A DNA stretch of 64,000 bases, taken from NCBI GenBank assembly GCA_963662285.2, contig CAXXMV010000002.1, forward strand, positions 1,632,001-1,696,000, read 5' to 3'. The translations under genes and the position numbers were made by a program. The stretch's first letter is position 1. Each line of letters begins with the position of its first letter. Below the pieces are notes generated by a model. The model saw nothing but the letters and a program-made list of their open reading frames with translations, ran no database searches and was not told the DNA's origin. This document shows, one piece after another, positions 1,386-44,615 of this stretch. The stretch is from a bacterium. Its GTDB lineage: Bacteria; Hinthialibacterota; Hinthialibacteria; Hinthialibacterales; Hinthialibacteraceae.

Positions 1386-3152
1386 ATGTTTCATTTACGC
1401 CATTTGAACTACTTATTATTAGCGTCACTTATTCTTATATTCTCCGCATCTGTTGTTTATGCTGATCCTGATCCGGATATGGACAATGTTGTCATCAACG
1501 ATTTCCCGGTGCGACTCAACCTGTCTCCAGTGGCGCCAACTACTCATGACAGCATATTGATTGAAGGATTCCTGCGGCCAAGTACGTATATACAGGAAAT
1601 TGAACTGGTGGATTATCAGTGGGAAAATCCTTATAAACTATTGGTAAATCTACTTTTAATTCCTGGAGATTTCGTCCCCCCGGAGGAAGGTAAAGATTAT
1701 TTCGCCATCAATTTAGAACCTCAAGCAGAAGGTGAATATACCGTTGTATTCCTAAATAACGGTGAAATTGCCCACCAAATGGAATTTAAGGTCGAGAAGA
1801 CCATACCCAAGTTTCCCATCAATCTGGATATCCTTGCCGCTGAATCATCAGGTATGTTTGACATCGTGGTTTCCGGTGAATTCCCCAATCCGGCTTACTC
1901 CATTAACCAGCATGAGATTATCACCGCACCGAATCGTATTGTAGTCAGCCTCAACATAGATGAACCAACCGAAGCCGCCGCCCAGGTTATCACTCCCTTC
2001 AAAGAAAACCTGGAAAGCATTCAGTTAGAAGATGGCTTCTATGATGTCAGGTTAGAAATCAATGGCCGGATTATAATATATCAACCTTTGGAGATTAAAG
2101 ATTCTATACCTTCTATTATCGTACCCATACCAATGCCTGAACCTGTTCCTGCGATGTTGCATGACGTTAAACTCAACATCGATCCTTTCACAGTAAACAA
2201 AGGGGGAACCATCAACGCCACTGTTGAAGGATATTTCTCCAGCACGGCATACGAAATAACCAATGAAGAAATACGTCAAGACAATAATATGTTCATCATC
2301 CATTGGGATGTTAAAGAACACGAGATTGGCGATAGCGTCATCGTTCCCGTTAAAAAGGAATACGCCTTCGAAAACCTCGAACCGGGTTATTATGAAGTGC
2401 TTTTTGAAATTAATGAAAACGTTATCGAAATGAGCAAATTTCATGTTGATGGTAAAATTTTCAAACCAACAGAAGGCCTGCCTTTCAGTGCGGAATTGCG
2501 AACGATGTTTATGCAAACAGTAACGGAAGAAGGCGGCTCACAGGATTCAGTTCATTTTAACCTGAGCGGAGATTTTCCGACTACTGGATATCTCTTTGCA
2601 GAGAAGAGTATCAATATCAATGACGATCAGATCACCATCAATATTGAGATCACCGAACCTGATGGAGTCGTCGCTGAAGTTATCACATCATATAATGAAG
2701 ATATCGGCTCTCTCGATATCGCTGACCTCTGGGAACGAACCTATACAGCAACCGCCATCGTCAATGGCGTCGCTTTGGACCCTGTAACCTTCGGAGGACC
2801 GATTAATCCCTGGAGTTGGATCGACGTACAATTGGATTACGATGGCAACGATGATTCCATAACCGATTTCATCGTCGTTGGGAATACGCCCTCTCCGGGA
2901 TACTCCATTGAACAGAGCGAAATTGATATTGACGGCTACCAGATCAATGTCCGCTTGACTATTCAAAAGCCAGAAGGCGAAGAACCAGCGGTCATTCAGC
3001 CCATCCGCAAAAATATCGGCGCCGTGAGAGTACCGGATATTTGGGGAAACGCCTATCAACTAAATATTTTCGTCAACGGCGAATTGATTAACAACCGCCA
3101 GGTCCATAACGGCGAAACCATTACACCAGTTCTAAACTGGACCATCTATTAA
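1386..3152 (+). CDS. Secreted protein with about 5 tandem PrcB-C-like beta domains and the shared C-terminal motif
   Basis: Signal peptide (VVYA-D). Repeated G-x-F-P-x-x-[AG]-Y ... P-x4-A-x-VIT ... NG units. Ends TPVLNWTIY. Confidence 0.75.
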   Translation: MFHLRHLNYLLLASLILIFSASVVYADPDPDMDNVVINDFPVRLNLSPVAPTTHDSILIEGFLRPSTYIQEIELVDYQWENPYKLLVNLLLIPGDFVPPEEGKDYFAINLEPQAEGEYTVVFLNNGEIAHQMEFKVEKTIPKFPINLDILAAESSGMFDIVVSGEFPNPAYSINQHEIITAPNRIVVSLNIDEPTEAAAQVITPFKENLESIQLEDGFYDVRLEINGRIIIYQPLEIKDSIPSIIVPIPMPEPVPAMLHDVKLNIDPFTVNKGGTINATVEGYFSSTAYEITNEEIRQDNNMFIIHWDVKEHEIGDSVIVPVKKEYAFENLEPGYYEVLFEINENVIEMSKFHVDGKIFKPTEGLPFSAELRTMFMQTVTEEGGSQDSVHFNLSGDFPTTGYLFAEKSININDDQITINIEITEPDGVVAEVITSYNEDIGSLDIADLWERTYTATAIVNGVALDPVTFGGPINPWSWIDVQLDYDGNDDSITDFIVVGNTPSPGYSIEQSEIDIDGYQINVRLTIQKPEGEEPAVIQPIRKNIGAVRVPDIWGNAYQLNIFVNGELINNRQVHNGETITPVLNWTIY

Positions 3153-3197
3153 CAACACACCACTCAATTGTTTTTTTCTCCATGTCATGTTTCAGAG

Positions 3198-3227
3198 AAG
3201 GGGATGGCCATCACGCCATCCCCTTTT
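3198..3227 (+). terminator. Rho-independent terminator
   Basis: AAGGGGATGGC-catcac-GCCATCCCCTT followed by T run, after 1386..3152. Confidence 0.7.
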
Positions 3228-3278
3228 CACATATACACACGGAACAACAAAAGCCCCCACCTACGCGTTATGATAAAA

Positions 3279-3318
3279 ATCCCTCTCCCAAGACTGGGAG
3301 AGGCTAGGTGAGGGTTGA
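3279..3318 (+). repeat. CCCTCTCCC..GGGAGAGG family REP-like palindrome
   Basis: atccctctcccaagactgggagaggctaggtgagggttga. Near-identical inverted copy at 3796..3835. Relatives near 28627, 31179 and 35940. Confidence 0.75.
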
Positions 3319-3349
3319 AAAAAATCACCCAAGCCAAACAAAACGGGGT

Positions 3350-3389
3350 GGGTGGCAAGGGCAAGACCGCAATGTGCCCAGCCCTTGAT
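3350..3389 (+). repeat. Dispersed CAAGGGC..GCCCTTG hairpin repeat, copy 1
   Basis: caagggcaagaccgcaatgtgcccagcccttgat. Other copies at 25289 and 56769. Confidence 0.75.
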
Positions 3390-3423
3390 GCGATCACTGA
3401 CGATTCAGCGAACACTTCAAACT

Positions 3424-3762
3424 TCAGTGGGTGGGTTGTATATCAGTTGTTTTATGTTCCATAGGAACCAACTCTATCCGAACTTTCAGGTTAAGAGCGG
3501 CGGCGATGCGGCGCAGCATGGCAAGAGTATGCCCATCATAGTCAGAATCTTCCAAACGGTTAATCACCGTCTGGCTCGTCCCAATTAAATCAGCCAACTC
3601 CTGTTGCGTTAATCCTGCGCCCTGCCGTAAATCATAAATGATCTGTGCAATTTCGGCATTCGCTCTTTCCTCTTCAAGAAGAGCCAACATTTCCGGTTTT
3701 CCTTCAATATACCGACGGTGCAGAATTTCAACGCCATCTGTTGTCGGTTCTCGCTTACTCAT
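3424..3762 (-). CDS. XRE/HigA-like HTH antitoxin-type regulator (orphan)
   Basis: IYDLRQGAGLTQQELADLIGTSQTVINRLEDSDYDGHTLAMLRRIAAAL HTH_3 motif. ATG at 3762 preferred over the ORF-track start at 3768. Confidence 0.85.
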   Translation of the reverse strand: MSKREPTTDGVEILHRRYIEGKPEMLALLEEERANAEIAQIIYDLRQGAGLTQQELADLIGTSQTVINRLEDSDYDGHTLAMLRRIAAALNLKVRIELVPMEHKTTDIQPTH

Positions 3763-3783
3763 GATCAATAATCCTTATAACAT

Positions 3784-3940
3784 GGGTGGCTGCTATCAAC
3801 CCTCTCCTAACCTCTCCCAATCTTGGGAGAGGAATAGTTATACAAAGTATTTTATATGACCAAGTCTAAACAATATAACTGGTGATATTTCCAAAATCCC
3901 TCTCCCCCGAGCCTGGGGGAGAATTCAAGAGGGGGTTGTT
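3784..3940 (-). mobile_element. About 157-bp double-palindrome dispersed element (REPIN/MITE-like), copy 1
   Basis: The reverse complement aligns end to end with 35837..35991, including the AT-rich spacer. Confidence 0.75.
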
Positions 3941-4020
3941 GCCTATAACTTTGGATTTTCCAATTTACATTATCATAATAATCAAAATGTGGGCGCCTAG
4001 GGGTTACTTCTCCTGGTATA

Positions 4021-4824
4021 TCACCGCGCAAAGCTGAAATTGGGGGTGGTATTTCCAGCCGTAACCATAGGGATGCCTCCAGGGGCGGGTTGCTCAGCGC
4101 CGCCGAACAGGGCGCTTAAGACTCCAGTGGCGGCGGCCAGGTTTTGCTGCAAGACTTGATCCGCGTCCTGTTGGAAATCATCCATCTTTTGTTGCAGGCG
4201 TTCCAACTCGACGCTGCGTTTCTCTTTTTCGTTATCATCCATTTCACGTTCAAGTTTGGCTTCTTCGCGGCGGTTTTCTTCTATTTGAGCCGGATTGCCC
4301 GATTGGATAGCGCGATCCATCTCCATACGCGCCAGGGTTATATTACGTTCCAGTCGCTGGTCTTCCGATTCAAGGTCTTGCTCCTGCTCTTGCAGTTCAT
4401 CTTCGGTTGGTTGGGTTGCGTTTTGCAGATCAGTTGACGAAGCCGACAGCGCATCATCTTCGGCCTCAGGCTCTTCGCTCTCTTCGGCGGCCTCCAGGTA
4501 ATCTTTGCTTGGCGTCTGGGGTTGATAGACCGAATTAGGCAGAAAACCATTTGAATCAGTTCGGGTTACGACTGTAGTCAATCCACCGTTGATAGTAGGG
4601 CTGACATCCCCCACGCCCAAGGTGAAAGTCCGCTTGGTGAAGAGCACATCCTCGCCTTGAGCCATGGCGCGCATACGCAGACGGGTTTCGTTGCGTTGTT
4701 CCTGGGTCGAAACAAGCCCTGCTGATTGCGCTTCCGTAGCTGCAAGCCGAATCGCCGGTTCGCCCGGATCGGGCTTAAAATGCATCACCGGCATGCTCTG
4801 CATGCCTACTGGACCAATAACCAT
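4021..4824 (-). CDS. Hypothetical protein with acidic coiled-coil C-terminal half and no signal peptide
   Basis: 267-aa ORF. N-domain KPDPGEP...QEQRNE...GGLTTVV followed by an E/Q-rich coil. Confidence 0.7.
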   Translation of the reverse strand: MVIGPVGMQSMPVMHFKPDPGEPAIRLAATEAQSAGLVSTQEQRNETRLRMRAMAQGEDVLFTKRTFTLGVGDVSPTINGGLTTVVTRTDSNGFLPNSVYQPQTPSKDYLEAAEESEEPEAEDDALSASSTDLQNATQPTEDELQEQEQDLESEDQRLERNITLARMEMDRAIQSGNPAQIEENRREEAKLEREMDDNEKEKRSVELERLQQKMDDFQQDADQVLQQNLAAATGVLSALFGGAEQPAPGGIPMVTAGNTTPNFSFAR

Positions 4825-4888
4825 CGTTTTATCTCATAATTCTTATTTCGAGACAGACCTCTCCCGGACAGACTTATCTAATATCGAA

Positions 4889-4915
4889 TTATCGGTTGTT
4901 TTCAGAAAAACTTAA
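4889..4915 (-). promoter_or_regulatory. Sigma28 (FliA)-type promoter
   Basis: Minus strand TTAAGTTT-N11-ACCGATAA, compared with consensus TAAAGTTT-N11-GCCGATAA. Confidence 0.65.
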
Positions 4916-5067
4916 GGGAATTTAGGGTAAAGTCTGGAGATTTGTTGATATTCTTTACCCGGCCTCGAAATAATGCATAATTAAATGTATATACATATTT
5001 GCTATAACATAAGATTCACATATAGTCTGGCATCTCATTAAAGAATCCCCTGGATCAAGGAAATTTC

Positions 5068-6450
5068 ATGAACGGTAAAGAACTGTTATTCAAAACATTA
5101 CGCAAAGAGGAAACCTTCCGGCCAGCCTGGGTTCCATTTGTGGGCATTCATGGCGGCCAGATAATTGACGTTACCGCGGAAGATTATTTAAAATCCAGCG
5201 ACCTGATCATCCAGGGATTAACCAAAGCCATTGAACTCTATAAACCCGACGGCATTCCCATAGTATTCGACCTGCAAGTCGAAGCGGAAATCCTGTCATG
5301 TGAATTACGCTGGTCGGCCGAAAGCCCGCCATCGGTGGTTTCGCATCCCCTACAGAATGGCGCCTTAGAGGATTTGCCGCCCTTCGATGCAACCAAGGGA
5401 CGCATGCCGCTAATTCTGGATGCGCTGCGTCAGTTAAAAAAAGACCACGGCGATCAGGTCGCCATGTATGGATTGATCACCGGCCCCTTCACTCTGGCTT
5501 TGCATCTGATGGGCAACGACCTGTTTTTGAATATGTTCGATAAAGAAGATATGGTGAAAGAGGTGCTGGACTTCTGCGCTGAAGTGGGCAAAAAATCCGC
5601 GCAAGCATATATAGAAAACGGGGCCGATGTCATCGCAGTGGTTGATCCCATGACCAGCCAGATATCATCCGCCCATTTCGAAGCCTTCGTGACGCCATTC
5701 ATCAATGATGTCTATGATTACATTCGCGAACAAAAAGCCTTCTCATCATTATTCGTATGCGGAGACGCCACCAGAAATCTGGAAGTCATGGCGCAAACCC
5801 ATTGCGATAACATCTCTATCGATGAGAATATCTCGCTTGAACTGTTGACCAAACTTGGCAAACAATACGACAAATCGGTTGGAGGCAACCTGCAATTAAC
5901 CGTATCGCTCCTGCTGGGCACTGAAGACGATGCCAAACTAGACGCCATACGCTGCATCAAAGCAGCTGAAGGCAGCCCTGGTTTTGTTCTATCGCCGGGC
6001 TGCGATATCCCCTGGGGCGTGCCCGTCAAGAACCTGCAAGCGGTGGCCGATATGCTGCTGGACAGTTATCAAAGAGATGTAGCCGAGCATACCATCAAGA
6101 TCGGCGAGGTCGATTCGTTCGATGATATTTCGCTGCCGGATTATAACCATGAAGAAAACGTCTACGTCGATATCATAACCCTCGACTCCACCAGTTGCGC
6201 TCCATGCCAGTACATGCTCGAAGCGGCGCAGCAAGCCGTGGACGCCCTGGGAGAAAACGTCGTCGTTACCGAGCATAAAATCAAAACCCGCCAGGGATTA
6301 GGCGTCATGACCAAACTGGGCATCCGCAATATCCCCACTATATGCATAGACGGCCACGCCCGTTTCGTCTCCATGCTGCCCGACCAGAACATACTGATTG
6401 ATACCATCAGGACGCGGGTAAACCAAAAGAAAGCGATGATGTTAAAATGA
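5068..6450 (+). CDS. Uroporphyrinogen decarboxylase / MtaA-CmuA methyltransferase family protein with C-terminal thioredoxin-like domain
   Basis: TGPFTLA, LFVCGD, VGGNL and VLSPGCDIP motifs. C-terminal DSTSCAPCQYM...IPTICIDG. Confidence 0.85.
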   Translation: MNGKELLFKTLRKEETFRPAWVPFVGIHGGQIIDVTAEDYLKSSDLIIQGLTKAIELYKPDGIPIVFDLQVEAEILSCELRWSAESPPSVVSHPLQNGALEDLPPFDATKGRMPLILDALRQLKKDHGDQVAMYGLITGPFTLALHLMGNDLFLNMFDKEDMVKEVLDFCAEVGKKSAQAYIENGADVIAVVDPMTSQISSAHFEAFVTPFINDVYDYIREQKAFSSLFVCGDATRNLEVMAQTHCDNISIDENISLELLTKLGKQYDKSVGGNLQLTVSLLLGTEDDAKLDAIRCIKAAEGSPGFVLSPGCDIPWGVPVKNLQAVADMLLDSYQRDVAEHTIKIGEVDSFDDISLPDYNHEENVYVDIITLDSTSCAPCQYMLEAAQQAVDALGENVVVTEHKIKTRQGLGVMTKLGIRNIPTICIDGHARFVSMLPDQNILIDTIRTRVNQKKAMMLK

Positions 6451-7370: not shown

Positions 7371-7385
7371 TTCTCACCTATGCAC

Positions 7386-7422: not shown

Positions 7423-7434
7423 GGTTATGAAACG

Positions 7435-8334
7435 TTATTGGGCATTGCGTAATCCACGGCCATGATCTTTGCGTGCTTGCAGTTCTTGGACCTGTTCATC
7501 GGTGAGTACTTTTTTGATTGCTTCGCGCATTTCGTTGGATATGTCCTGGCGAATATCTTTGATCTTTTCAATCTGCTCAGCGGTTAGATCTAGTCCGCGC
7601 AAAGCCATTCCTGGATATCCACCTTGAGCTGCATCGCCGCGACCGTGACCCTGGCCTCTGGCTTCACTCTGGGCGAAGTTGCCGCCTCGCGCCCTGCGTC
7701 CCTGTCCTTTACCTTGAACTGCGCAATCGCGACCGTGACCCTGACCTCTGGTTTCACTCAGGGCGAAGTTGCCGCCTCGCGCCCTGCGTCCCTGTCCTTT
7801 ACCTTGAACTGCGCAATCGCGACCGGGACCCTGACCTCTGGTTTCACTCTGGGCGAAGTTGCCGCCTCGCGCCCTGCGTCCCTGTCCTTTACCTTGAACT
7901 GCGCAATCGCGACCGTGACCCTGGCCTCTGGTTTCACTCAGGGCGAAGTTGCCGCCTCGCGCCCTGCGGCCTTGACCTCTAAATTCTTTCATTTTTTCAA
8001 TTTGTTCGTCGGTTAGGTTGAGTCCACGCATTCCCATTCCACGATGTTGTCCTTGTGCTGAATCTTCGTTGTCGAATCCAGGTCCTTTAGGGCCTCGTGG
8101 AGCAAAGTTGCCGCCGCGTCCCATGCGTCCCTGGCCTCTAAGTTCCTGCAATTTTTCAATCTGTTCGTCGGTCAGGTCGAGCGCTTTAATCATGTGTTCG
8201 AATTGTGTATCGGTTCTGTTGTCGATTGATTGAGACGGTTTCGCATTTACATCCTGCGCATAAGTTGCTGGTCCTGCAGCCATGATTCCAATGATGCTGG
8301 CGGTGATAATAGTAAAGAATTGATGAAGTTTCAT
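7435..8334 (-). CDS. Secreted Spy/CpxP-like (LTxxQ) protein with Gly/Arg-rich 30-aa repeats
   Basis: Signal peptide (ATYA-Q). LDLTDEQ, LNLTDEQ, LDLTAEQ and VLTDEQ motifs. Confidence 0.75.
   Translation of the reverse strand: MKLHQFFTIITASIIGIMAAGPATYAQDVNAKPSQSIDNRTDTQFEHMIKALDLTDEQIEKLQELRGQGRMGRGGNFAPRGPKGPGFDNEDSAQGQHRGMGMRGLNLTDEQIEKMKEFRGQGRRARGGNFALSETRGQGHGRDCAVQGKGQGRRARGGNFAQSETRGQGPGRDCAVQGKGQGRRARGGNFALSETRGQGHGRDCAVQGKGQGRRARGGNFAQSEARGQGHGRGDAAQGGYPGMALRGLDLTAEQIEKIKDIRQDISNEMREAIKKVLTDEQVQELQARKDHGRGLRNAQ
7621..7980. repeat. Intragenic tandem repeat, 4 x 90 bp
   Basis: gaccg(t/g)gacc recurs at 7641, 7731, 7821 and 7911. Encodes RARGGNFA(L/Q)SETRGQG(H/P)GRDCAVQGKGQGR. Confidence 0.95.
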
Positions 8335-15367: not shown

Positions 15368-17908
15368 CTAATACAGACTCCAATTAGATACAGGAGTGGG
15401 TAGAAGAGTGCTCAGAAATTCACGCCTCAATTGAACGAATGTTCTAAGAATATCATACGAGTCTGTAATCTGTTCCCGCCGGGTGTTGCGCATTGCGCCG
15501 GTATGTTCTTCAAGAAGTTGTAAATCATCCAAGAGGAACTTCTCGACTTCTGCGAATTTGCCAAACATGCGTTCTTCTGTGAAAGCATGATTAAATTCGT
15601 AACCCATCCGGTCAATGTATTGCTGATAGAATACTTCATCCTTGCATAGCGGTCCGGTAATTGGTCCGGTATCACGACCCGCGTGTGCTGCTCTGCCGTT
15701 TAAGGGGAATTCAAGCGGCATTTCGGTAAACATGGGATTGGAGTCAGTGTATCCCCAGGCTTTATCCAGGTCCCAGGGAATCATTTCCCACTTCTGCGTA
15801 TCGGGATCAAGAGTCATCCAATGATTGTTATGGAAACCATCCCAATTGCTCAATAACACGCAGGCGGTGATGTACTGAATAAATTCATCCACATCCAGGT
15901 TGGTTTCAAGCAATTCATGCAATTTTGTTTTATCACGCTCTTTCAGTAGTGTTTCGAGGTTGTCGATACTGGCCGTGCCGTTTTCCAGATTGTTGTGGGG
16001 TTCCCAGTTGGGGCTTACATAATTTCGTTTAAACAAATCGGCGTCTGGATTGCGGTCGTTGATTTCTAAAAACCTTTCGTTGACTTGCTGAATCATTATC
16101 CGTTGAGTGTGGCTGCCATCCACAATTACGCGGAACCAATCGGTCAGGGGAGCAGGGATGCCCATTTCACGGAAAAACCAGAATCCAAGGTCTTCACGGT
16201 GGGGAGTACTAGGGCCGGAGGTATTGCCAGTTTGATTGTATTCTGGAAGCATATTTAATGTCCGGTCACCCCGGTATTCTTCGCCTTTGAGGAACTTCAT
16301 TTTCTGCCCATTACGGGATGTGTGGATCATGGCGCCATCGAAAACCAGAGGATGCGTTTCACCAGCTGGCAAGATAACCGCCCCGCTCATAATCCGTTCC
16401 ATTTCTATCAACGAGACTGGGCTTTCATAATAAGGCCATAATATGGTTAATAGAGATTCAACTTCTCCATCGTAGACGAAATAAGATTCAAAAGGACGCA
16501 GATTCATTACATGAGGTAAAACCAGGGTTGAATCATCATTTAGAATAAGTTTGGCATTAAACCGTATGAGCGACTGGGACGGCATGGCTGGAATTTTCGC
16601 TTCATAGGTTACCGAATCAACGCTCTCTGCGATGCGAGTCATTAAGATTTGGTGGATATCTGATTCAACCTCCGTAACGATATGTTCTCCTTCAACGAGA
16701 CTGACTCCTAGTGAGAATGATGATGCAGTTAAACTGGAATTAAGCCCCACCATAGCGAGAGTGTTGTTTTCGTTTTGCAATAATCCATTGTCATTCGGGA
16801 TGGTGAAAATTTCCCAGTTGTTTGAACTGTGTGTATCGGTTGCAAGCGATTCGTGGTTAACTGATTGAGGGATGTTGTCGCTGGCGACTTCGATGCCATT
16901 GAGGTAACAAACAAAACCTCCAGTGTAACGAACCATGATGTTAACGTTTGCCAAAGTATCGGCATCAGGAATGGAAAATTTACGGCGTAGGTATACGGTA
17001 GAATAATTCCTCCGCATATCGTTTAGTTCAGTGCGATTGCGGTTCCATCCACTTCCGCCATAGCCGAATGTACCCTGTCCCCGTCTCCAGGAAGAATCAT
17101 CAAAGTCTGGAGCAGCCCAAAGGTCTGATTCAGAAGGCGCTTTGTTTCCTTTCCAATACTGAAAATTATCTCTGGATGAAACATAAGTTTCCGGTCCTTG
17201 GTTGCTTCCGCCTTCGACGCCTTGTTCGGCTTTTTCCCATTGCAAGGTTACCGATTTGATAATATTTGCGGCATCGAAACCCATGCGGATTGCGACCTCA
17301 TCACTAGAGGTTGGGTGTTCGGGTAGAACTTCATGCGCAAGAATAACCGGGCGCGGCTTTGTTCCGCTGATGGAATTAGCCAGACCGGGCGTCCCTTCAT
17401 CTAATAAAGAAGCCCGCCAACTGTGGAAATCATCCGCTGGTAAATCCCAGGCGATCCGCTCCAATGTTGACCCATATCCGTCTGCGCTACGGCTCCAGGG
17501 AGGTGAATCGTTATATTTGAGTTCTTCAACTACCGTTCCATCGGGACGAACCAGCGACAACCGTTCGCCGCTATTGGATAATTTGCCCTCTAAAGGGCCT
17601 ATGACAGGAGATGGAGCGTTGTTCCAGATACGATTATCTGGATCACGCGCCAGCACCAGATAAGTATACGGCGCCATCAAAGAGCCTTCTGGAAGAACAA
17701 AAGTTGTCCCTTTATCAAAGTAATAACCGGATACATCAACAGAATCTGGTCCTGGATTGTACAACTCGATAAACTCTCGGATCGATCCCGTCGTATACTG
17801 TTCGTCGGGGGGATTGTAACTAATCTCATTAATAACTACATCCGCTCCTGCTATGGAACATATTATCAGTAATCCCAATAATCCCAAATAAAATATAATT
17901 TTTCTCAC
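15368..17908 (-). CDS. Secreted lamin-tail-domain + CotH kinase family protein with the shared C-terminal motif
   Basis: Signal peptide. VVINEISYNP...EFIELYN (LTD). SNWDGFHNN...IPWDLDKAWG (CotH). Ends TPVSNWSLY. Confidence 0.88.
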   Translation of the reverse strand: MRKIIFYLGLLGLLIICSIAGADVVINEISYNPPDEQYTTGSIREFIELYNPGPDSVDVSGYYFDKGTTFVLPEGSLMAPYTYLVLARDPDNRIWNNAPSPVIGPLEGKLSNSGERLSLVRPDGTVVEELKYNDSPPWSRSADGYGSTLERIAWDLPADDFHSWRASLLDEGTPGLANSISGTKPRPVILAHEVLPEHPTSSDEVAIRMGFDAANIIKSVTLQWEKAEQGVEGGSNQGPETYVSSRDNFQYWKGNKAPSESDLWAAPDFDDSSWRRGQGTFGYGGSGWNRNRTELNDMRRNYSTVYLRRKFSIPDADTLANVNIMVRYTGGFVCYLNGIEVASDNIPQSVNHESLATDTHSSNNWEIFTIPNDNGLLQNENNTLAMVGLNSSLTASSFSLGVSLVEGEHIVTEVESDIHQILMTRIAESVDSVTYEAKIPAMPSQSLIRFNAKLILNDDSTLVLPHVMNLRPFESYFVYDGEVESLLTILWPYYESPVSLIEMERIMSGAVILPAGETHPLVFDGAMIHTSRNGQKMKFLKGEEYRGDRTLNMLPEYNQTGNTSGPSTPHREDLGFWFFREMGIPAPLTDWFRVIVDGSHTQRIMIQQVNERFLEINDRNPDADLFKRNYVSPNWEPHNNLENGTASIDNLETLLKERDKTKLHELLETNLDVDEFIQYITACVLLSNWDGFHNNHWMTLDPDTQKWEMIPWDLDKAWGYTDSNPMFTEMPLEFPLNGRAAHAGRDTGPITGPLCKDEVFYQQYIDRMGYEFNHAFTEERMFGKFAEVEKFLLDDLQLLEEHTGAMRNTRREQITDSYDILRTFVQLRREFLSTLLPTPVSNWSLY

Positions 17909-22031: not shown

Positions 22032-23306
22032 ATGAACAAGCGAATTGTTTGTATGGTTGCAGCGTATCTCATTATTATTTCCATTCCAGTTGCCCAAGCT
22101 CAGAAATACGATTCTACTCCAGTTGATCTGGAGAGTATTTGGAATGCGGTAATCTGGTATAATGATGGACAAGCAGTTGATTCAAGCCTTGGTTTGCCTA
22201 CCAACGATGCTGGAATTAAAATCTCCACACTCCCCAGCAATGTCATTCCAGGACAGGTAAACATTACAGAAGATGGCGTGGTTGCATTTCTCTTGCCGGA
22301 TATGACTGCGGGAAATCTCAATGCTTATTATGTAGCGGGGGATAACATTCAGGTTCCTCCGGGAGAATACCAGTATGTATTTCTTGCAGTCACTTCCGAT
22401 AGTGGTAATTGGCCGGGTAGTGTGAGCGACTGGGCTGCCGATGTTGATCCTGATACGGGAGAAATCTATGACCCCCGTTCTGAGGGAAACAGTTTCAAAC
22501 CCATTTATGTTGATGGTGAAGGCGATTGGATTCCCATAGGAATCGTACCCGATTGGTTCTGGAAACCGCCGGAGTGGGTAGCCCCGGCCAGTGGAGATTC
22601 CAGTGAAGTTATTCAGGAATACCTTTCCTATGCGGCTGATCCCAATGGCCCTCTCTACTTCTGGGATGGGGTGAACTATGGCGATCACGATTTCGGTCAA
22701 TATACCTATTGTAATGGAGAAGATTCATACTTTATGTATATAATGGATATCCCTGATGGATTGACTTCCGCAACTTTATGGACCGAAATGTGGGGCAACG
22801 TCAAATTCTCTATTTCCACAGATGATGAGACGTTTACCGAGCTTTATAACTCCGCCACCATGGATCAGGTATACACCGCCCGTTCAGGAAATCTCGATGG
22901 TTACCAACCAAACCGCGAACTGCGCGATTTTGACCTGACGCCGTTTATTTCTTCCGGGGATGTAAATACCATTTACTTAATGTTTGAAGATGCCGCTCCT
23001 TTGAATGCCGTGGGCCAGGAGAACAATCCTTGGGGCGCACGTTGCCATCGGCTAGGCATCTATACCGGACCAACCGTGAAAACCAGTGGTGGATCGCGTT
23101 TATGGCAGGGAATGGAAACAACCAGCTGGGGCTCTCCAGAAGGTGGAATATATCTAATCTGGAAACAGTACCGCGTGGATGCGACGCGAACCCTTCAGTC
23201 TATTTTATTACCCAATAATAGACCTGCAAACTCTCCCTTTCTGATCCTTTTTGCTATCACTCTGGCAAATGATCGTACTGCAATCGAAGATTTTATGTTG
23301 TATTAA
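22032..23306 (+). CDS. Secreted acidic beta-sandwich (carbohydrate-binding-like) protein with the shared C-terminal motif
   Basis: Signal peptide (AQA-Q), Trp/Tyr/Asp-rich. Ends TAIEDFMLY. Confidence 0.75.
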   Translation: MNKRIVCMVAAYLIIISIPVAQAQKYDSTPVDLESIWNAVIWYNDGQAVDSSLGLPTNDAGIKISTLPSNVIPGQVNITEDGVVAFLLPDMTAGNLNAYYVAGDNIQVPPGEYQYVFLAVTSDSGNWPGSVSDWAADVDPDTGEIYDPRSEGNSFKPIYVDGEGDWIPIGIVPDWFWKPPEWVAPASGDSSEVIQEYLSYAADPNGPLYFWDGVNYGDHDFGQYTYCNGEDSYFMYIMDIPDGLTSATLWTEMWGNVKFSISTDDETFTELYNSATMDQVYTARSGNLDGYQPNRELRDFDLTPFISSGDVNTIYLMFEDAAPLNAVGQENNPWGARCHRLGIYTGPTVKTSGGSRLWQGMETTSWGSPEGGIYLIWKQYRVDATRTLQSILLPNNRPANSPFLILFAITLANDRTAIEDFMLY

Positions 23307-32126: not shown

Positions 32127-32396
32127 TGTACTATTCCTCCCGATTGGGTTTAATAAATTATTTCTTGTATTCCTAAATCAATGTTCTTTCCATATATTTT
32201 CTAAGCATCTAATCTCCGATAATTATCTAATCTATCAGATTATCATGCCAACCGTCAATTGGTTAAGTGGAGAGGATGGGAGATATTAATGTATTTAACC
32301 TTTTTTTAGTGATAAGTTCAGATATGGCTAATGTTTTTCCGAACATTTTATTATAAAATAGTGACTTATATAAAAACTACACGAAGGAGGAATCTT

Positions 32397-33083
32397 ATGA
32401 TCAAAAGAGTATGCCTGTTATTAATCGTTTGCTTTATTTCACTGGGCGCCATTGCGGCGGAAAAAGCCGATCCGTTCGCTGTGGGAGAAAAATGGGTTTA
32501 CAAACATGATGGCCCGAAACCAATGAGCTGGAGAAATGAGAAAATCGAAGGCGATATGGTTCGAGTTGTCACCGGGATTAAGGGAGAAGGCGAGCAAAAA
32601 CGCTGGATCATCAAAGAAACTTATGGCGCAGCTGATGAACGCCCAACCAGTTCCTACATTGATAGCAATAATCAGTATTCCAAAATGGATTCAGGCGCTG
32701 ATCGATCAATGACTTACGATCCAGCTGTTCCGTTCTATTTCCCTGAATTAAAAGTAGATGAAACAAAAGAGATTAAAACCCAGTTCAGTTTTGGACAGGG
32801 TGGTTTCCCTGTATCTATTACATACAAACGCGTGGCTGATGAAACGATTAAAGTCCCCGCTGGAGAATTTAAGAATTGCCAGCATTACAAGGTGGAAACG
32901 GTATTTACTTTTAACCGTGATGGCAATGAATTTAAGATGAAATCAAATCGTGAACTTTGGTATAACGCTAAAGTGAATGGTTTTGTGAAAATCATGATGA
33001 TTCAACCAGATCGTGAATTTAACGGTGAAGTCCGAAAAGGTTATACCGCCTCCAGCGAATTGAAAGAGTATTCCAAGAAATAA
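32397..33083 (+). CDS. Secreted beta-rich protein (VPAGEF motif, DUF3108-like), paralog 1
   Basis: AGGAGG SD, signal peptide, GEKWVY...KVPAGEF...ELWY..VNGFVK. Confidence 0.8.
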   Translation: MIKRVCLLLIVCFISLGAIAAEKADPFAVGEKWVYKHDGPKPMSWRNEKIEGDMVRVVTGIKGEGEQKRWIIKETYGAADERPTSSYIDSNNQYSKMDSGADRSMTYDPAVPFYFPELKVDETKEIKTQFSFGQGGFPVSITYKRVADETIKVPAGEFKNCQHYKVETVFTFNRDGNEFKMKSNRELWYNAKVNGFVKIMMIQPDREFNGEVRKGYTASSELKEYSKK

Positions 33084-33137
33084 TGATTTACGTTTTATGA
33101 TTAATGAATGACAAGAAATACCCAAGGGAGGAAACTT

Positions 33138-33824
33138 ATGTTCAAAAAAGCATGTCTGTTCCTTATCGTTTGTAGTATTTCACTGGGCGCCATTGCGGCG
33201 GAAAAAGCCGATCCGTTCGCCGTGGGAGAGAAATGGGTCTATAAACATGATGGCCCAAGACCAATGAGCCGGAGCAGCGATCAAATCGAAGGCGACCGGA
33301 TTCAAGTTGTAACTGAGATTCGAGGAGAAGGAGAGAAGAAACTCTGGATCATCAAAGAAACTTATGGCGCAGACGATGAACGCCCAACCAGCTACTATAT
33401 TGATGTCAATAAACAGTATGCCAAAAGAGATTCAGGCCCTGATCGATCAATGACTTACGATCCAGCTGTTCCGTATTATTTCCCAGAATTAAAAGTTGGT
33501 GAAGAAAAAGAAATTAAGACCAACAGTAGTTTTGGGCAGGGTGAATTCCCCATTTCTATGACATACAAACGCGTCGCCGATGAAACGGTTAAAGTCCCCG
33601 CTGGAGAATTTGAGAATTGCCAGCATTACAAGGTGGAGATTGTATATACTTTTAACCGTGGTGGAAATGAAATGAAGATGACATCTAACAATGAACTTTG
33701 GTATAACGCCAAAGTGAATGGGATGGTGAAAATCGTCTTAATCAGACCAGATCGTGAATTTAATGGTCAAGTCCGTAAAGGTTACACCGCCACCAGTGAA
33801 TTGAAAGAGTATTCCAGGAAATAG
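33138..33824 (+). CDS. Secreted beta-rich protein, paralog 2
   Basis: Same length as and colinear with the preceding gene, with long identical DNA blocks. Confidence 0.8.
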   Translation: MFKKACLFLIVCSISLGAIAAEKADPFAVGEKWVYKHDGPRPMSRSSDQIEGDRIQVVTEIRGEGEKKLWIIKETYGADDERPTSYYIDVNKQYAKRDSGPDRSMTYDPAVPYYFPELKVGEEKEIKTNSSFGQGEFPISMTYKRVADETVKVPAGEFENCQHYKVEIVYTFNRGGNEMKMTSNNELWYNAKVNGMVKIVLIRPDREFNGQVRKGYTATSELKEYSRK

Positions 33825-36090: not shown

Positions 36091-36639
36091 ATGAAAAATA
36101 GTGGATTTACCTTGATAGAATTGTTGATTGTGGTCGCCATTATCGGGATTCTGGCGGCAATTGCCGTCCCGAATTTCTTGAATGCGCAGGTAAGAGCCAA
36201 AATCGCTGGTACGCAAGCGGATCAACGTTCTCTGGCTACGGCGCTTGAATCGTACCGTATGGATAAAAATATGTATCCGCCGACTCCCAACACCGCCGCC
36301 AATCTACGTTTCGCCCGTTTGGCCAAATTAACCTCGCCTACTCCATATATGTCCAGCGTGCCGCTTGATCCTTTCCGCTCCAGATTGGTGCACGATATGC
36401 TAGACAGCGCATATCCCTTCTGGGATCCGGAAACGGCTGATGCACAAAGGAAAAGCGGTAACCGGTTTGATGCTTTGCCAAGCGTAAAGAGCCGTTTAGG
36501 AGGTTGGGTGCTGCATGGCGCCGGGCCGGATCAAGACTATGAACCGGATACCGCCGGGGGCGGTTCAGGAATAATCTATTTATTTGATGCTTCCAATGGA
36601 TTAAACAGCGATGGAGATATCGATCGATTTGGTTTGTAG
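36091..36639 (+). CDS. Prepilin-type N-terminal cleavage/methylation protein (GspG-like pseudopilin)
   Basis: G|FTLIELLIVVAIIGILAAIAVP, ALESYRMD..YP, PLDPF, GAGPD. Confidence 0.92.
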   Translation: MKNSGFTLIELLIVVAIIGILAAIAVPNFLNAQVRAKIAGTQADQRSLATALESYRMDKNMYPPTPNTAANLRFARLAKLTSPTPYMSSVPLDPFRSRLVHDMLDSAYPFWDPETADAQRKSGNRFDALPSVKSRLGGWVLHGAGPDQDYEPDTAGGGSGIIYLFDASNGLNSDGDIDRFGL

Positions 36640-36646
36640 CAGGTGG

Positions 36647-37277: not shown

Positions 37278-37291
37278 CGTTGATTCTCCGT

Positions 37292-40507: not shown

Positions 40508-41404
40508 ATGAAATCAAGAAAATTCTATACCTGTATTCTTGTTTTAACACTCTGTTTTTTCACCTCTTCATGCACTCCGGAAAAAGCCAAGGCGTTATAT
40601 TCAGCGGCAGTGCAATTTAAGTTAGAGTCGTTAGACGCAGTCAACGCTATCGATGAAATGATGAGCAAAGAGATTGCCGCACCGCTGAGAGAGGCAAGCC
40701 CGGCTGATGAAGAATTTGTCAAGAATCTTTTATCATTGCCCGACGATATAGAAATTGATAGTTATGTAATTAATACTGCGATTGATCCATATACAGTTGA
40801 TTTGGATGAGGATTACCTAAAACGCCGGGCGAAATTCAAATCTGATTTACACCAGCAATACTCTACCTTTGCATCTATTTTCTCTGATTTGGAAGGCGCG
40901 TTTTTAGTCGCCGCAAAAGAAATAAAACGAGCCACGGCATCTGCGGAAAAGTTAACCCTCCAATTGTCTTGTTTTGCCAAATCGATTAGTGATAATCCAC
41001 CTATTTTCTTGCAATATCGTTCTTCGATTCTTAATCAGTTTGATGAAGTATTGAAAGATGAAAATCTAGAAGAGAATGAAAAACGGATTAGTTTGCTTAG
41101 TTTGAAAGAGAAATGGCTATCTATCAAAGACCAGGAAACTCAGATGCAACGAAACACCCTTGAGAAATGCGTGAAGGCTTCTCAACTTGGTATAAAAGTG
41201 AAGGAACTGATTGAAACCTATAATAAATTATCTCTCGATGATATTCACTTTTACGTCGCCAAGATACTCGATGAAGCTGGATCTATCTCAGGAAAAGATC
41301 TAAGTGATTTAAAAATCAAATCAGAAGAAATATATACGAAGATCACATCTGATCCGATATTAAAAAACTCGGCGGATGCAATCTTGGAACAAATAACCCC
41401 ATAA
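40508..41404 (+). CDS. Hypothetical helical lipoprotein
   Basis: Lipobox FTSS-C, AGGGAG SD. Confidence 0.7.
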   Translation: MKSRKFYTCILVLTLCFFTSSCTPEKAKALYSAAVQFKLESLDAVNAIDEMMSKEIAAPLREASPADEEFVKNLLSLPDDIEIDSYVINTAIDPYTVDLDEDYLKRRAKFKSDLHQQYSTFASIFSDLEGAFLVAAKEIKRATASAEKLTLQLSCFAKSISDNPPIFLQYRSSILNQFDEVLKDENLEENEKRISLLSLKEKWLSIKDQETQMQRNTLEKCVKASQLGIKVKELIETYNKLSLDDIHFYVAKILDEAGSISGKDLSDLKIKSEEIYTKITSDPILKNSADAILEQITP

Positions 41405-41419
41405 ACAGGAGGAAAAGAA

Positions 41420-41716
41420 ATGGATAATGATATTATCGTTCTCGAAGATGTGGCTGCATCTGTAATATCTATCGACAGGAAATATAGAAAAGCGGATTTT
41501 AATGATAAACTTTTGTTAAAAAAAGATCGAGACAAGGCTTTTAATACTTATGCGAAAGCCCGGTTGAAATTACTGGAAGACGGCGTTATATGCAAGCAAA
41601 AAGATGTCGATGAAATGAAAGAGATTCGTAGTGCAATCTCTCGCGCCAGAAAAACGCAAACCATTCTAGCCGCTATCGGTCGGTTGGTGGTATTTTTAGC
41701 GAAGATAGCCGTTTAG
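41420..41716 (+). CDS. Small hypothetical protein with hydrophobic C-terminus
   Basis: AGGAGG SD, 15 bp after the lipoprotein gene, followed by a terminator. Confidence 0.7.
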   Translation: MDNDIIVLEDVAASVISIDRKYRKADFNDKLLLKKDRDKAFNTYAKARLKLLEDGVICKQKDVDEMKEIRSAISRARKTQTILAAIGRLVVFLAKIAV

Positions 41717-41748
41717 GAATTATCGATAAAAAACTGATTATAATTTTA

Positions 41749-41780
41749 CAGGGGGTAATGGAATTTTCCATTACCCCCTG
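41749..41780 (+). terminator. Terminator hairpin
   Basis: CAGGGGGTAATGGAA-tt-TTCCATTACCCCCTG. Confidence 0.7.
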
Positions 41781-41939
41781 CTTATTATCAAAAGAAATTT
41801 TCAACCAAAGCGCTTCCACCTGTTAGTTCTTCAATTATGTGATACATTTGTATAAAGTGCGTTTATTGAATAATTACAAACTTAACAGATAATAAGGCTA
41901 TAGTAGAATCATAATCTTCGGGGATGGGATATAGTTCTT

Positions 41940-44615
41940 ATGCAGCGATTGCCAATTACCTTTCGATTAACATGTTTCCGGGCGTTCATTATTCTGGCTT
42001 CAATTACACTTATAACTCTAACTTCAGTCAAATCATATTCACAAATCCTGCTGATCAACGAAATTCTGACATCTACGTCAGAAACTGATCAAAATGGGAC
42101 TCCATTGGAGTGGGTGGAAATTTTTAACGCTGGATCAGAAGCGGTCGATCTGGTGCAATATAGTCTGACCGATGATTTACAGAATCCCAGGAAATGGAAT
42201 TTCCCGCCAGTTACGCTTGAGCCGGGCGGCTACTTTCTGGCTATGGCCACCGCTTACGATTATTATAATCCAGGCGAATATCACACCAATTTCAGGCTTG
42301 ACGCTGATGGCGAATACCTGGCGATTTATCGAAATTCTGATTTACTGGTCATAGATTCCATAAATTATCCGGTTCAGCAGAAAAACGTATCCTATGGGCG
42401 TGATCCCAATACTCCCGAAAAGTGGGTCTTTCTAGATCCAACTCCGAAAAAAGTTAATCCAGCCGATGGATCGGTTGGCAGCGCTGAAGCTCCGGTTTTT
42501 TCGATCCCCGGCGGCGCCTTTGATGCGGCTGTTACAGTGGAACTATCGACTGACCAGGATGATGCTGATATCCGCTATACATTGGATGGTTCTCCACCAA
42601 GCCAAACCAGCCCGATATACACGAATCCTATTACTATAAATAAATCCACCCCGCTTCGCGCCAGCGTGTTCATGGAAGAGTATGCGCCTAGTGATATCAT
42701 TACCCATACTTATTTTATAAACGAAGATATGCCGTTGCCCATCATTTCTTTAGTTACTGATCCTCCTGGATTATGGGATAGATCAAAAGGCATCTACGCC
42801 AATGCGAGCCAGCATGGACCTAATTGGGAACGATCCGCTTCGATGGAATATATCAAGCTGGATGGCAGCCGGTGGTTTGGCGTTGACGCTGGAGTACGCA
42901 TTCACGGCGGGGCGTCGCGCGACCGTGCAGAGAAGAAATCATTCCGGGTCTATTTCCGGACGAACTATGGCCCGGGGCGTTTGAACATTCCTCTCATTCC
43001 ATCAACTCCACTGGACGACTTTGACAGTTTTATTTTACGCGCCGGGTATAACGACAGTTGGATTCATTGGGATGCCATAGAGCGTCAGGTAGCGGTCTAT
43101 ATCTCCGACCAGTTGGGACGCACTGTTCATGGCGACATGGGTTCAGTTTTTTGTCATGGCATTTACGCCGGGTTATATCTCAACGCAGATTATTGGGGAG
43201 TGTATAACCTATGCGAGCGGGTCGACAGCGATTTTCTTGATTCGTATTACGGCGATGAAGAATGGGACATTATTTCGGACGATGAGGTTAAAGAAGGCGA
43301 CAAGACTGAATGGAACCGCTTGATCACTTTCGCTGCGAGTAAAGACATGCGCAACGATGATAATTATGCTCAGTTGGTCGACATGATTGATCTGGAGCAG
43401 GTCACCTCTTATTACATTCTCAATATATGGGTTCAGAATCATGATTGGCCTCATCATAACTGGTTTACCGCCCGTGAACGAAGACCGGACGGCAAATGGA
43501 AATTCCTGGTCTGGGATATGGAAGACTCGTTCGGTTCAGGCGTATCACGCGGCAGTTATAACATGAATTCATTTACCAATGCTCAACAGGGTGGTTCTTT
43601 GGGCACTCTCTTCAAAGCATTATTGAATAATGACCAATATAAACAATATTTCATGGATCGGCTCTATTATTATCTGGATACTGTTTTGAATCCAGAACAT
43701 TTGCTGCCTATGTTGGATGATCAAGCCAACCAGATTCGCGTCGGCATCCCATCTGAAGCGGAGCGCTGGAACCAAAATATGAATATTGATGTCTGGGAAG
43801 AGGCTTTGAATACGGCTAGGACATTCATCAACAACCGCACGGAATTCGTATTGAATCACGTCACCCGTGCGATTAAACTGCCTACGCCGACTCCAACCCC
43901 GGCGCCAGTTAAACCTACTCCGACGCCGGGTGGACCGACGCCGACTCCTACCTCCACCCCGACCGTTACGCCGACTCCAGTGCAACCCATTCCCGGCGAG
44001 GAACTGGGCATCTTTGAAGCCAGCGTCGATATTGGCGATGCGCTGGCTGCTGAAGGAGAGGCTTTGTTTGATGCGTCAACCGGAGTCTATACAGTCACGG
44101 GAAGCGGGACTGATATTTGGGGAACCCAGGATGAATTTCATTTTCTCTATAAGCAAATCAGCGGAGATTTTTCTCTTGAAGCGGAAATGAGCGGAGAAAA
44201 CCTGGGTGGAAGCGATTGGGCCAAGATCACGCTTATGGCGCGTGATTCCCTCGATGCGGATGCCAGGCATTTCGCCCCACGCCTTCAGGAATCAACTTTA
44301 CAGGCCAGTTCTCAATGGCGCATGGAAACAGGCGGCTCTGCGGGAAGCTCCGCAAGTGGATCGCGCATCAACGCAAATCAACATGATGGGCGTTTCCGGC
44401 TGGTGCGTGATGGAGACGATTTCAACACATATTATTTTTCGGTTGACCTTAACGATTGGTCCTATCTGGATGGCCAAACTATCTTTATGGATGACCCCAT
44501 CTATATCGGTTTAGCTGTCACATCTCACGACAACGGCAATTACGCCAAAGGCTTTTACGAAAATGTTAAATTAACTCTACCCCATACCGTTATCTATGAT
44601 TGGATGATGCATTAG
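41940..44615 (+). CDS. Secreted LTD + chitobiase/FN3-like + CotH kinase + Pro/Thr linker + beta-sandwich protein with the shared C-terminal motif
   Basis: LINEI..EWVEIFN, IRYTLDGS.P, NHDWPHHNW..VWDMEDSFG, PTPTPTP, GSGTDIWGTQDEFHF. Ends TVIYDWMMH. Confidence 0.88.
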   Translation: MQRLPITFRLTCFRAFIILASITLITLTSVKSYSQILLINEILTSTSETDQNGTPLEWVEIFNAGSEAVDLVQYSLTDDLQNPRKWNFPPVTLEPGGYFLAMATAYDYYNPGEYHTNFRLDADGEYLAIYRNSDLLVIDSINYPVQQKNVSYGRDPNTPEKWVFLDPTPKKVNPADGSVGSAEAPVFSIPGGAFDAAVTVELSTDQDDADIRYTLDGSPPSQTSPIYTNPITINKSTPLRASVFMEEYAPSDIITHTYFINEDMPLPIISLVTDPPGLWDRSKGIYANASQHGPNWERSASMEYIKLDGSRWFGVDAGVRIHGGASRDRAEKKSFRVYFRTNYGPGRLNIPLIPSTPLDDFDSFILRAGYNDSWIHWDAIERQVAVYISDQLGRTVHGDMGSVFCHGIYAGLYLNADYWGVYNLCERVDSDFLDSYYGDEEWDIISDDEVKEGDKTEWNRLITFAASKDMRNDDNYAQLVDMIDLEQVTSYYILNIWVQNHDWPHHNWFTARERRPDGKWKFLVWDMEDSFGSGVSRGSYNMNSFTNAQQGGSLGTLFKALLNNDQYKQYFMDRLYYYLDTVLNPEHLLPMLDDQANQIRVGIPSEAERWNQNMNIDVWEEALNTARTFINNRTEFVLNHVTRAIKLPTPTPTPAPVKPTPTPGGPTPTPTSTPTVTPTPVQPIPGEELGIFEASVDIGDALAAEGEALFDASTGVYTVTGSGTDIWGTQDEFHFLYKQISGDFSLEAEMSGENLGGSDWAKITLMARDSLDADARHFAPRLQESTLQASSQWRMETGGSAGSSASGSRINANQHDGRFRLVRDGDDFNTYYFSVDLNDWSYLDGQTIFMDDPIYIGLAVTSHDNGNYAKGFYENVKLTLPHTVIYDWMMH

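Follow-up and report, generated by a model that had tools for sequence, protein, structure and literature searches.

A nine-residue C-terminal tail on exported proteins of the Hinthialibacterota, a candidate sorting or docking tag

Why should four exported proteins with differing bodies, encoded within 64 kb of a bacterial genome, all end at the stop codon in variants of the same nonapeptide? The question is raised by a stretch of 64,000 nucleotides (positions 1,632,001 to 1,696,000 of contig CAXXMV010000002.1, assembly GCA_963662285.2), referred to here as the window, from a bacterium of the phylum Hinthialibacterota, also known as OLB16. An initial annotation of this stretch had suggested a lineage-specific C-terminal tag for secretion or surface attachment and anticipated many further cases genome-wide. 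Here, we report an analysis of this tail in the genome to which the window belongs (G000), in 35 genomes of the phylum, and in a sample of genomes from other phyla. The tail proves to be abundant and fixed to the chain end, and is carried by a wide variety of exported proteins. We infer from sequence analysis a role in secretion or anchoring, and consider it likely that the tail is read in trans as a tag for sorting or docking.

Translation bore out the C-termini of all four proteins (Table 1), and a check of all the genes in the window found the tail on no others. One correction is needed: the gene for the 846-residue protein (P0004), the tail of which, TPVSNWSLY, stands as reported, lies on the minus strand, the only one with an open reading frame (ORF) at this place, the plus strand being interrupted by many stops. 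Read directly, the four N-termini each consist of a basic stretch, a hydrophobic stretch and a small-residue site, in agreement with the signal peptides assigned to them initially. The bodies also differ as claimed. By Pfam, the 588-residue protein (P0001) has only a weak PrcB_C match, and the 424-residue protein (P0002), in which F replaces W at the fourth position from the end, matches no family. The two CotH proteins bear the tail after different last domains: in P0004, it is immediately C-terminal to the CotH domain, whereas the domain order in the 891-residue protein (P0003) is LTD, CHB_HEX_C/Fn3_assoc, CotH, a PT-rich linker, a sub-threshold DUF1349-like domain and the tail.

The genome (7.29 Mb in 8 contigs) yielded 5184 likely genes, called by codon-usage score and covering 86.8% of the DNA. 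The strict pattern given in the initial annotation, T-x-[VI]-x-[DN]-[WF]-x-[LIM]-[YH], ends 37 of the 5184 proteins, compared with 6 internal matches in 2,103,145 positions. A position matrix iterated from these 37 tails, with a cut-off score of 10, recovered 146 C-termini where 0.08 were predicted from the internal match rate, and its score distribution shows a clear gap, such that 145 of the 146 tails score at least 14. Counted by distance from the stop, the motif occurs 146 times at 0, 30 times at +1, once at +2, nowhere from +3 to +5, once at +6, and not at +7 or +8. Since nearly all matches sit at offsets 0 to 2, the motif is bound to the chain end. Together, the 146 exact tails and the 31 that are followed by one or two further residues make up about 3.4% of the proteome, so the expectation of many cases has been borne out. 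Placement exactly at the stop describes the 146; it is too narrow for the rest, as one extra residue is also tolerated (in the 30 proteins at +1, E in 12, D in 4, N, Q, K and R in 3 each, and Y and H in 1 each). At the DNA level, a pattern comprising the tail and its stop codon has 58 matches in the genome, and the reversed control has 0. Codons for the same residues vary among the 58 matches and, therefore, selection acts on the peptide. Stop codon usage also differs in these genes: TAA is commoner (98 of the 146 tail genes against 2486 of 5038 others) and TGA is rarer (13 of 146 against 1371 of 5038).

The tails follow the consensus [T>V,S]-x-[V>I]-x-[D,N,E,G]-[W>>F,Y]-[S,M,E]-[L>I,M,V]-[Y>F,H], followed by the stop or by one residue. 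Numbering from the last residue as -1, W occupies -4 in 135 of the 146 tails, T is found at -9 in 100, and D, N or E at -5 in 106; the last residue is Y in 90, F in 25 and H in 22. Thus, the motif recognized initially is real, with a true range that is wider than was given, extending to T, V or S at -9, D, N, E, G or S at -5, and Y, F or H at -1. The 146 proteins fall into 81 single-linkage clusters that are unrelated to each other. Across 81 cluster representatives, the positions from -1 to -5 and from -7 to -9 carry 1.3 to 5.6 bits of information, led by W at -4 with 5.6 bits and followed by -1 (3.2 bits), -7 (V/I, 3.1) and -9 (T, 2.8); positions -6 and -10 hold about 0.5 to 0.6 bits, and upstream of about -13 the information lies close to a baseline of 0.2 bits. 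Only the last 9 to 10 residues are conserved, so the tail is not the end of a common domain. These observations also leave a negligible probability that there is no signal at all, and that what is seen is a chance or compositional match, an end inherited by common descent or an element of the DNA where genes end. The shortness of the motif is all that speaks for such a reading; the 146 tails observed against 0.08 expected, the empty reversed control, the 81 unrelated clusters lacking upstream conservation and the varying codons speak against it.

In an AlphaFold2 model of P0002 built from 27 sequences (mean pLDDT 83.5), the last strand spans residues 403-414 and the tail residues 417-424 have pLDDT below 50, so that in this confident model the tail looks like a free, unstructured end. 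The modelled body consists of many short beta-strands, and its structural matches are weak, all to soluble beta-sandwich proteins of the lectin or carbohydrate-binding module type.

To assess export, we scored as signal-peptide-like any protein whose N-terminus has a hydrophobic core and that contains no membrane helix further on, a crude hydropathy test that over-calls. By this measure, 137 of the 146 tailed proteins are signal-peptide-like, compared with 1584 of the 5038 other proteins (odds ratio 33, Fisher p 1e-55), and the enrichment among exported proteins on which the initial annotation had staked its proposal is thus present. The same count sets the tail apart from type I secretion signals, which go without an N-terminal signal peptide. 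Lipobox-like signals are depleted: they are seen in 2 of the 176 proteins with the tail or the tail plus one residue, against 84 of the 1454 signal-peptide-like proteins that lack it (p 0.006). The statement that no twin-arginine protein has the motif holds in the window, where only the four proteins are tailed; it fails for the genome as a whole, in which one tailed protein has a clear twin-arginine-type signal, RRSFF.

The cargo is diverse. Of 78 tailed proteins searched against Pfam, 39 match no family; the remainder include 8 with CBM9, 6 with CotH/LTD, 3 each with FG-GAP, Peripla_BP_6 and Beta_helix, 2 subtilases and 2 proteins of the beta-lactamase fold, along with single matches to LamG, CBM11, GH42, S15 peptidase, WD40, an MtrC/MtrF-like multihaem cytochrome and six others. 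The cytochrome match belongs to a 604-residue tailed protein encoded at G000:C6:1171106-1172920 (L026:17406-19220), with both multihaem cytochrome c and MtrC/MtrF-like matches. Outer-surface cytochromes of the MtrC/MtrF type are type II secretion cargo in Shewanella.

Within families, the tail is, to judge from its retention among homologs, under selection. All 27 homologs of P0002 (41-80% identity) end in the tail; W is absent from position -4 in this family, which has F or Y there, and insertions and deletions occur in the linker that precedes the tail. Among 120 listed homologs of P0004, close ones of which bear the names 'Candidatus Hinthialibacter antarcticus' and 'Candidatus Omnitrophota bacterium', 62 keep the exact tail and 13 more, counted by eye, have it with one or two extra residues, as in ...DWALMD and ...EWSLYE. 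The most distant of these homologs have other ends in its place; three of them, P0081, P0093 and P0115, bear the C-terminal domain of the type IX secretion system (T9SS CTD, PF18962). The stretch preceding one tail has a sub-threshold match to the NCBIfam model 'choice-of-anchor Q' (17.7 bits, cut-off 25), a name used for domains that precede anchors of various kinds.

Across the phylum, the tail DNA pattern is present in 35 of 35 genomes examined, with 1 to 58 matches each: 12-58 in family f1, 8-29 in f3, 4-8 in f2, 1-19 in f6, where a looser DNA pattern also finds tails without T at -9, and 4 in the single f5 genome (G027). The single f4 genome, G001, has one match, which does not precede a stop. 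We considered G001 as a tail-free negative and rejected it: ORFs called on 800 kb (573 ORFs) include one exact tail, one tail followed by R and a third, weak one, where 0.003 were expected, so this genome, with 2-3 real tails in 573 ORFs, is tail-poor (compared with the 3.4% of G000). Contamination was likewise rejected as the source of the G027 tails, the contigs of which have a G+C content of 0.52-0.54, equal to that of a contig with a conserved cluster. Outside the phylum, we sampled 44 genomes reached through relatives of the fumarase encoded in the window. Two of these, G007 and G009, turned out to belong to the phylum (20 and 27 matches); the 42 genomes of other phyla, which include Ignavibacteria, Planctomycetota, Verrucomicrobiota, Omnitrophica, Hydrogenedentota, Acidobacteriota, Chlamydiia, Bacteroidota, Actinomycetota, Pseudomonadota and Myxococcota, yielded 3 matches against 4 control matches, that is, background. 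As far as sampled, then, the tail appears restricted to Hinthialibacterota/OLB16, as its initial description as lineage-specific would have it.

How does the tail relate to known C-terminal signals? No Pfam or NCBIfam model covers it, either in searches with whole proteins or in searches with eight 60-residue C-terminal pieces (E up to 10), in which all matches, namely choice_anch_Q, at the sub-threshold score given above, and Laminin_G_3, lie upstream of the tail. No description of the tail appeared in the accessible portions of the literature on Hinthialibacter, OLB16, type II secretion signals and C-terminal sorting, and in the accessible text of the phylum-naming paper (PMC9324843) the terms 'C-terminal' and 'secretion' occur 0 times. 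The tail therefore looks undescribed, consistent with the failure of the initial annotation to recognize a named family.

Among the closest parallels are the tripartite signals, LPXTG/sortase, PEP-CTERM/exosortase, GlyGly-CTERM/rhombosortase and MYXO-CTERM/myxosortase. Like the tail, they are short C-terminal signatures on many unrelated signal-peptide proteins of one lineage, and homologs in other lineages bear other anchors at this position. Type II secretion is, in addition, the route of GlyGly-CTERM cargo. These signals, however, consist of a motif, a membrane helix and a basic end, and are cut by a membrane enzyme, whereas the tailed protein stops at the motif. A hydrophobic 17-mer (hydropathy of at least 1.8) occurs in the last 45 residues of 1 of the 176 proteins with the tail or the tail plus one residue, and three or more K/R occur in the last 6 residues of none. 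These counts and the per-position conservation confirm that, as first noted, the tail contains no membrane helix, basic end or folded domain. A C-terminal helix with a basic end is found in 1 of 1325 other signal-peptide-like proteins of G000, and by this count and the T9SS CTD search below no rival C-terminal sorting system is apparent in this genome.

The T9SS CTD (Por_Secre_tail, PF18962/TIGR04183) is likewise carried by Sec-exported soluble proteins, serves outer-membrane passage and surface attachment, and, as described above, holds the place of the tail in distant CotH homologs. It differs in being a folded domain, with a Pfam model of 75 positions, as opposed to the 9-10 conserved residues of the tail, which are unstructured in the model of P0002. 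PF18962 matches none of the 82 tailed proteins scanned (the 4 of the window and 78 others), and across G000 it has one sub-threshold match (26.1 bits, cut-off 27). An N-glycosylation sequon, N-W-S/T, was also considered and rejected as not general: only 30 of 146 tails have N at -5, and 55 have S or T at -3.

The outer-membrane protein (OMP) beta-signal is read by BamA/BamD, and YxF-COOH is sensed by the PDZ domain of DegS. This signal resembles the tail as a short linear element with which Sec-exported proteins terminate, usually with an aromatic end and read in the periplasm of a two-membrane bacterium. If the tail were such a barrel assembly signal, as the Y and F ends of most tails might suggest, the tailed proteins would be outer-membrane proteins. 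However, their bodies are soluble domains by Pfam, and the model of P0002 matches no membrane barrel. The spacing differs as well. The beta-signal has an aromatic last residue and alternating hydrophobics at -3, -5 and -7, whereas the hydrophobic residues of the tail are at -2, -4 and -7, with S/M/E at -3 and D/N/E at -5, and His is accepted as the last residue in 22 of the 146. Furthermore, a likely porin of G000 (a DcaP match) ends in a different pattern, ...ATLMYKF. We regard this explanation as very improbable.

A free C-terminus on a periplasmic protein could also be the ligand of a PDZ-type protease of the Prc/CtpA or DegP/DegS class, so that the tail would be trimmed in maturation or would report unexported cargo. 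PDZ domains are known to recognize C-termini that are hydrophobic or aromatic and have a free carboxylate, as in the case of DegS and the YxF of outer-membrane proteins; the motif is within 0-2 residues of the chain end; and several PDZ proteins are present in G000 (11 PF13180 matches, by eye 8 ORFs). By length and neighbours alone, these resemble the usual set of HtrA, CtpA and RseP types, with nothing specific to the tail, and we set them aside as readers: they look like housekeeping proteins common to most bacteria, whereas the tail is limited to one phylum. In addition, 21 bits of motif on 3.4% of the proteome exceed what a degradation signal usually needs, and a residue after the aromatic one is tolerated in 30 proteins, in 6 of them K or R. 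A quality-control role thus seems improbable.

Alternatively, the tail might need no reader, its Trp, Leu/Ile and Tyr/Phe inserting into the outer membrane's outer leaflet or binding envelope polysaccharide. The preference of Trp and Tyr for membrane interfaces is well established, no reader protein has been found, and the tail is free and flexible in the model. A single short peptide would, however, have little membrane affinity, and the strong conservation of the polar positions (T at -9, D/N/E at -5) and the fixed register to the chain end favour a shaped binding site. We therefore assign to direct anchoring a similarly low probability, if anything slightly lower than that of a protease signal.

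Recognition by a receptor thus appears the better account of the tail, and its working can be sketched as follows. Cargo would be exported by Sec, lose its signal peptide and fold in the periplasm. The exposed tail would then be bound in trans by a receptor, perhaps pairing as an extra beta-strand while the receptor caps the chain end, and the receptor would pass the cargo to an outer-membrane route. Tailed proteins would in this way leave the periplasm or reach the cell surface, and exported enzymes devoid of a tail, such as sulfatases, would remain behind. The closest analogue of such a mechanism is the peroxisomal targeting signal 1 (PTS1, -SKL) and its TPR receptor PEX5, where a soluble receptor recognizes folded, unrelated cargo by its last few residues and hands it on to a translocon that accepts folded proteins. 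PTS1 is eukaryotic and cytosolic and has another motif, and no TPR receptor has been linked to the tail. The likeliest route would be a secretin/pseudopilus machine resembling type II secretion systems (T2SS). A trans-read tag for an outer-membrane route, to the outside or the surface, with a machine of this kind as the likeliest carrier, is in our view the best overall explanation, one that we hold as plausible while stopping just short of calling it probable. For the component claim that the tail serves export across the outer membrane and not retention alone, our confidence is likewise a little below even.

Table 1. Coordinates of the tailed proteins of the window and of the clusters considered in the search for a reader
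Feature	Location	Strand	Description
588-residue exported repeat protein (P0001)	window 1386..3152	+	tail TPVLNWTIY at 3123..3149, adjoining the stop
846-residue exported LTD + CotH protein (P0004)	window 15368..17908	-	tail TPVSNWSLY at 15371..15397
424-residue exported protein (P0002)	window 22032..23306	+	tail TAIEDFMLY at 23277..23303
891-residue exported protein (P0003)	window 41940..44615	+	tail TVIYDWMMH at 44586..44612
GspG-like prepilin paralog (N_methyl + T2SSG)	window 36091..36639	+	context only; adjoins no tail gene here
T2SS-II cluster (L002)	G000:C6:872400-890232		GspE, F, H, J, K, L/M-like, GspC/PilP-like, GspD; no GspG (Pfam)
TPR-secretin cluster (L004)	G000:C8:416797-431653		sigma-54 activator, two cohesin-like proteins (PF00963), PilM-PilN fusion, unknown 521-residue protein, 1057-residue secretin

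In search of a candidate machine, we surveyed the secretins of G000, where the domain has 8 matches. The loci comprise three type II secretion clusters (T2SS-I, T2SS-II and T2SS-III), a type IV pilus, a Tad locus, two paired short secretins and the TPR-secretin cluster; Pfam checks cover the type II clusters, the paired secretins and the TPR-secretin cluster, and the type IV pilus and Tad were named by gene order and size alone. T2SS-II is the best candidate. Its secretin (GspD) has 975 residues with six Secretin_N domains, and the 30 kb on either side of the cluster contain 6 tail genes where 1.9 were expected. By profile search, its GspC/PilP-like family is present in 32 of 35 genomes and was not found in G001, G027 and G029; G001 and G027 are the two tail-poorest lineages, and G029 is 68% complete. 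Full-length relatives of the T2SS-II secretin have the same genome distribution, with the f6 versions contained in ORFs of 1636-3966 residues. T2SS-III relatives are present in 5 of 5 genomes tested and do not discriminate, and T2SS-I was not found in family f6, which has tails. The T2SS-I secretin (L001, G000:C1:564048-566764) is split into a 485-residue N0/N-domain protein and a 414-residue secretin-domain protein, and corresponds in other genomes to ORFs of about 400 or about 900 residues.

The second lead concerns pseudopilins. G000 encodes about 101 GspG-like prepilin paralogs of some 200 residues each, with a near-invariant N-terminus and conserved LTTP..Y, DPF, GPD and SNG..S.GD motifs, and five other genomes of the phylum have from 41 to at least 151 relatives each. 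Such a paralog is the immediate neighbour of 22 of the 146 tail genes, mostly on the same strand. Samples of signal-peptide-like genes without a tail gave 7.6 +/- 2.5 such neighbours and reached 22 in 0 of 3000 draws, so the adjacency is three times the expectation. These approximately 100 scattered paralogs might supply pseudopilins to T2SS-II, which has no GspG of its own. A GspG-like module also turned up in another setting in the window: a BlaR1-type M56 membrane peptidase/sensor (52099..53988, plus strand) has in its periplasmic C-terminal part, at residues 492-590, a borderline T2SSG match (E 3.3e-4, 21.1 bits, cut-off 21), and this pseudopilin-like globular domain may be a sensor module.

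Both leads to type II secretion, the adjacency of the GspG-like paralogs and the distribution of T2SS-II, are weak, and several observations weigh against them or against the outer-membrane export reading as a whole. Among the candidates examined, no reader protein was identified, and by Pfam none of the three type II clusters has a PDZ-bearing GspC. G001 and G027 keep a few genuine tails, in G027 on contigs with that genome's own G+C, though T2SS-II parts were not found there; conversely, G028 has T2SS-II yet only 3 strict pattern matches. The lineages negative for T2SS-II are two, represented by one genome each (84% and 90% complete), and since G001 is tail-poor rather than tail-free, every argument from presence and absence is weakened. 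The GspG-like paralogs fare similarly. We had considered them as a phyletic marker when a strict DNA pattern indicated their absence from f6, and gave this up when a protein search found 51-95 there; numerous everywhere tested, including 41 in tail-poor G001, they do not discriminate. Moreover, 124 of the 146 tail genes have no GspG-like neighbour, and the adjacency may stem from common glycan-use regulons rather than from contact. The sulfatases, which would exemplify exported enzymes left behind, are tailed in 0 of 48 cases, but as only 11 of the 48 pass the signal-peptide test, the contrast is suggestive only and not significant on the signal-peptide subset. Finally, the signal-peptide and gene calls are our own, and crude.

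Other candidate readers were rejected on phyletic grounds. The TPR-secretin cluster, the 1057-residue secretin of which has N-terminal TPR and STN domains, does not discriminate either: all 35 genomes contain the secretin, and 33 contain the cohesin-like proteins. The TPR part is encoded in G001 by a separate gene of 573 residues. A 642-residue protein encoded after the T2SS-II secretin (g3279) occurs only in families f1 and f3 (24 of 35 genomes), and families f2 and f6 are also tailed. Complex prediction was applied to the T2SS-II GspC/PilP-like protein (residues 95-266), the secretin (100-495), a GspG-like paralog (46-208) and, from the tailed protein encoded next to this paralog, the C-terminal 40 residues; without controls, it returned an ipSAE of 0.00 twice, which speaks neither for nor against binding. 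Taken together, T2SS-II is unlikely to be the reading machine, even as the foremost candidate. We also consider it unlikely that the nine-residue tail is the first linear, position-defined signal for a T2SS-like machine, sufficient for folded cargo to travel via T2SS-II, with GspG-like paralogs as cargo-linked pseudopilins or as a display fibre.

The presence of cohesin-like proteins beside the TPR-secretin brings up a different use of a trans-read tag, in which tailed proteins would leave by general export and then be held non-covalently on the surface, on a scaffold or on a pilus-like fibre made of the GspG-like paralogs, the tail acting as a very small dockerin on a cohesin-type receptor. 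The cargo is of the kind seen in cellulosome-type display (CBM9, CBM11, LamG, beta-helix, GH42, subtilases), the two cohesin-like proteins are conserved in 33 of 35 genomes, tail genes adjoin GspG-like paralogs, the tail has a free end in the model, and the T9SS CTD borne by homologs elsewhere leads to surface attachment. Such an arrangement would resemble the dockerin-cohesin pairs of cellulosomes, where a C-terminal module on exported proteins that bind or degrade glycans docks on a scaffold. A dockerin, however, is a duplicated calcium-binding module of about 60-70 residues, as against 9 in the tail, and nine residues form a small interface for stable anchoring. No dockerin was matched by Pfam in the 82 tailed proteins, and no scaffold with repeated receptors was found. 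The two cohesin-like matches, at 33.2 and 24.0 bits, score close to the threshold of 24.1, and these proteins occur in tail-poor G001 too, with no tie to the tail. A pure docking or retention tag is unlikely.

Two further features of the window lie apart from these questions. An exported LTXXQ-motif (CpxP/Spy-like) protein at 7435..8334 (minus strand) has an internal run of near-identical repeats, GQGRRARGGNFA.SETRGQG.GRDCAVQGK, and the tandem paralogs at 32331..33083 and 33108..33824 (plus strand) have sub-threshold DUF3108 matches and near-identical signal-peptide regions.

The trans-read tag for an outer-membrane route, if it exists, would have consequences at several levels. Experimentally, a tag of nine residues could be grafted onto a reporter, made synthetically as bait for pull-downs and altered one position at a time. 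More generally, it would constitute a bacterial sorting signal that manages without a membrane helix, a folded domain or a barrel and that, acting on folded cargo, resembles the peroxisomal PTS1. Should the route be a type II secretion-like machine, the tail would bear on the old question of how type II substrates are recognized, for which we know of no linear secretion signal. For the Hinthialibacterota themselves, an uncultivated, polysaccharide-degrading phylum, the tail would provide a simple sequence rule for the proteins that are sent past the periplasm, about 3.4% of the proteome in the genome studied here, with half of the sampled cargo belonging to no known family.

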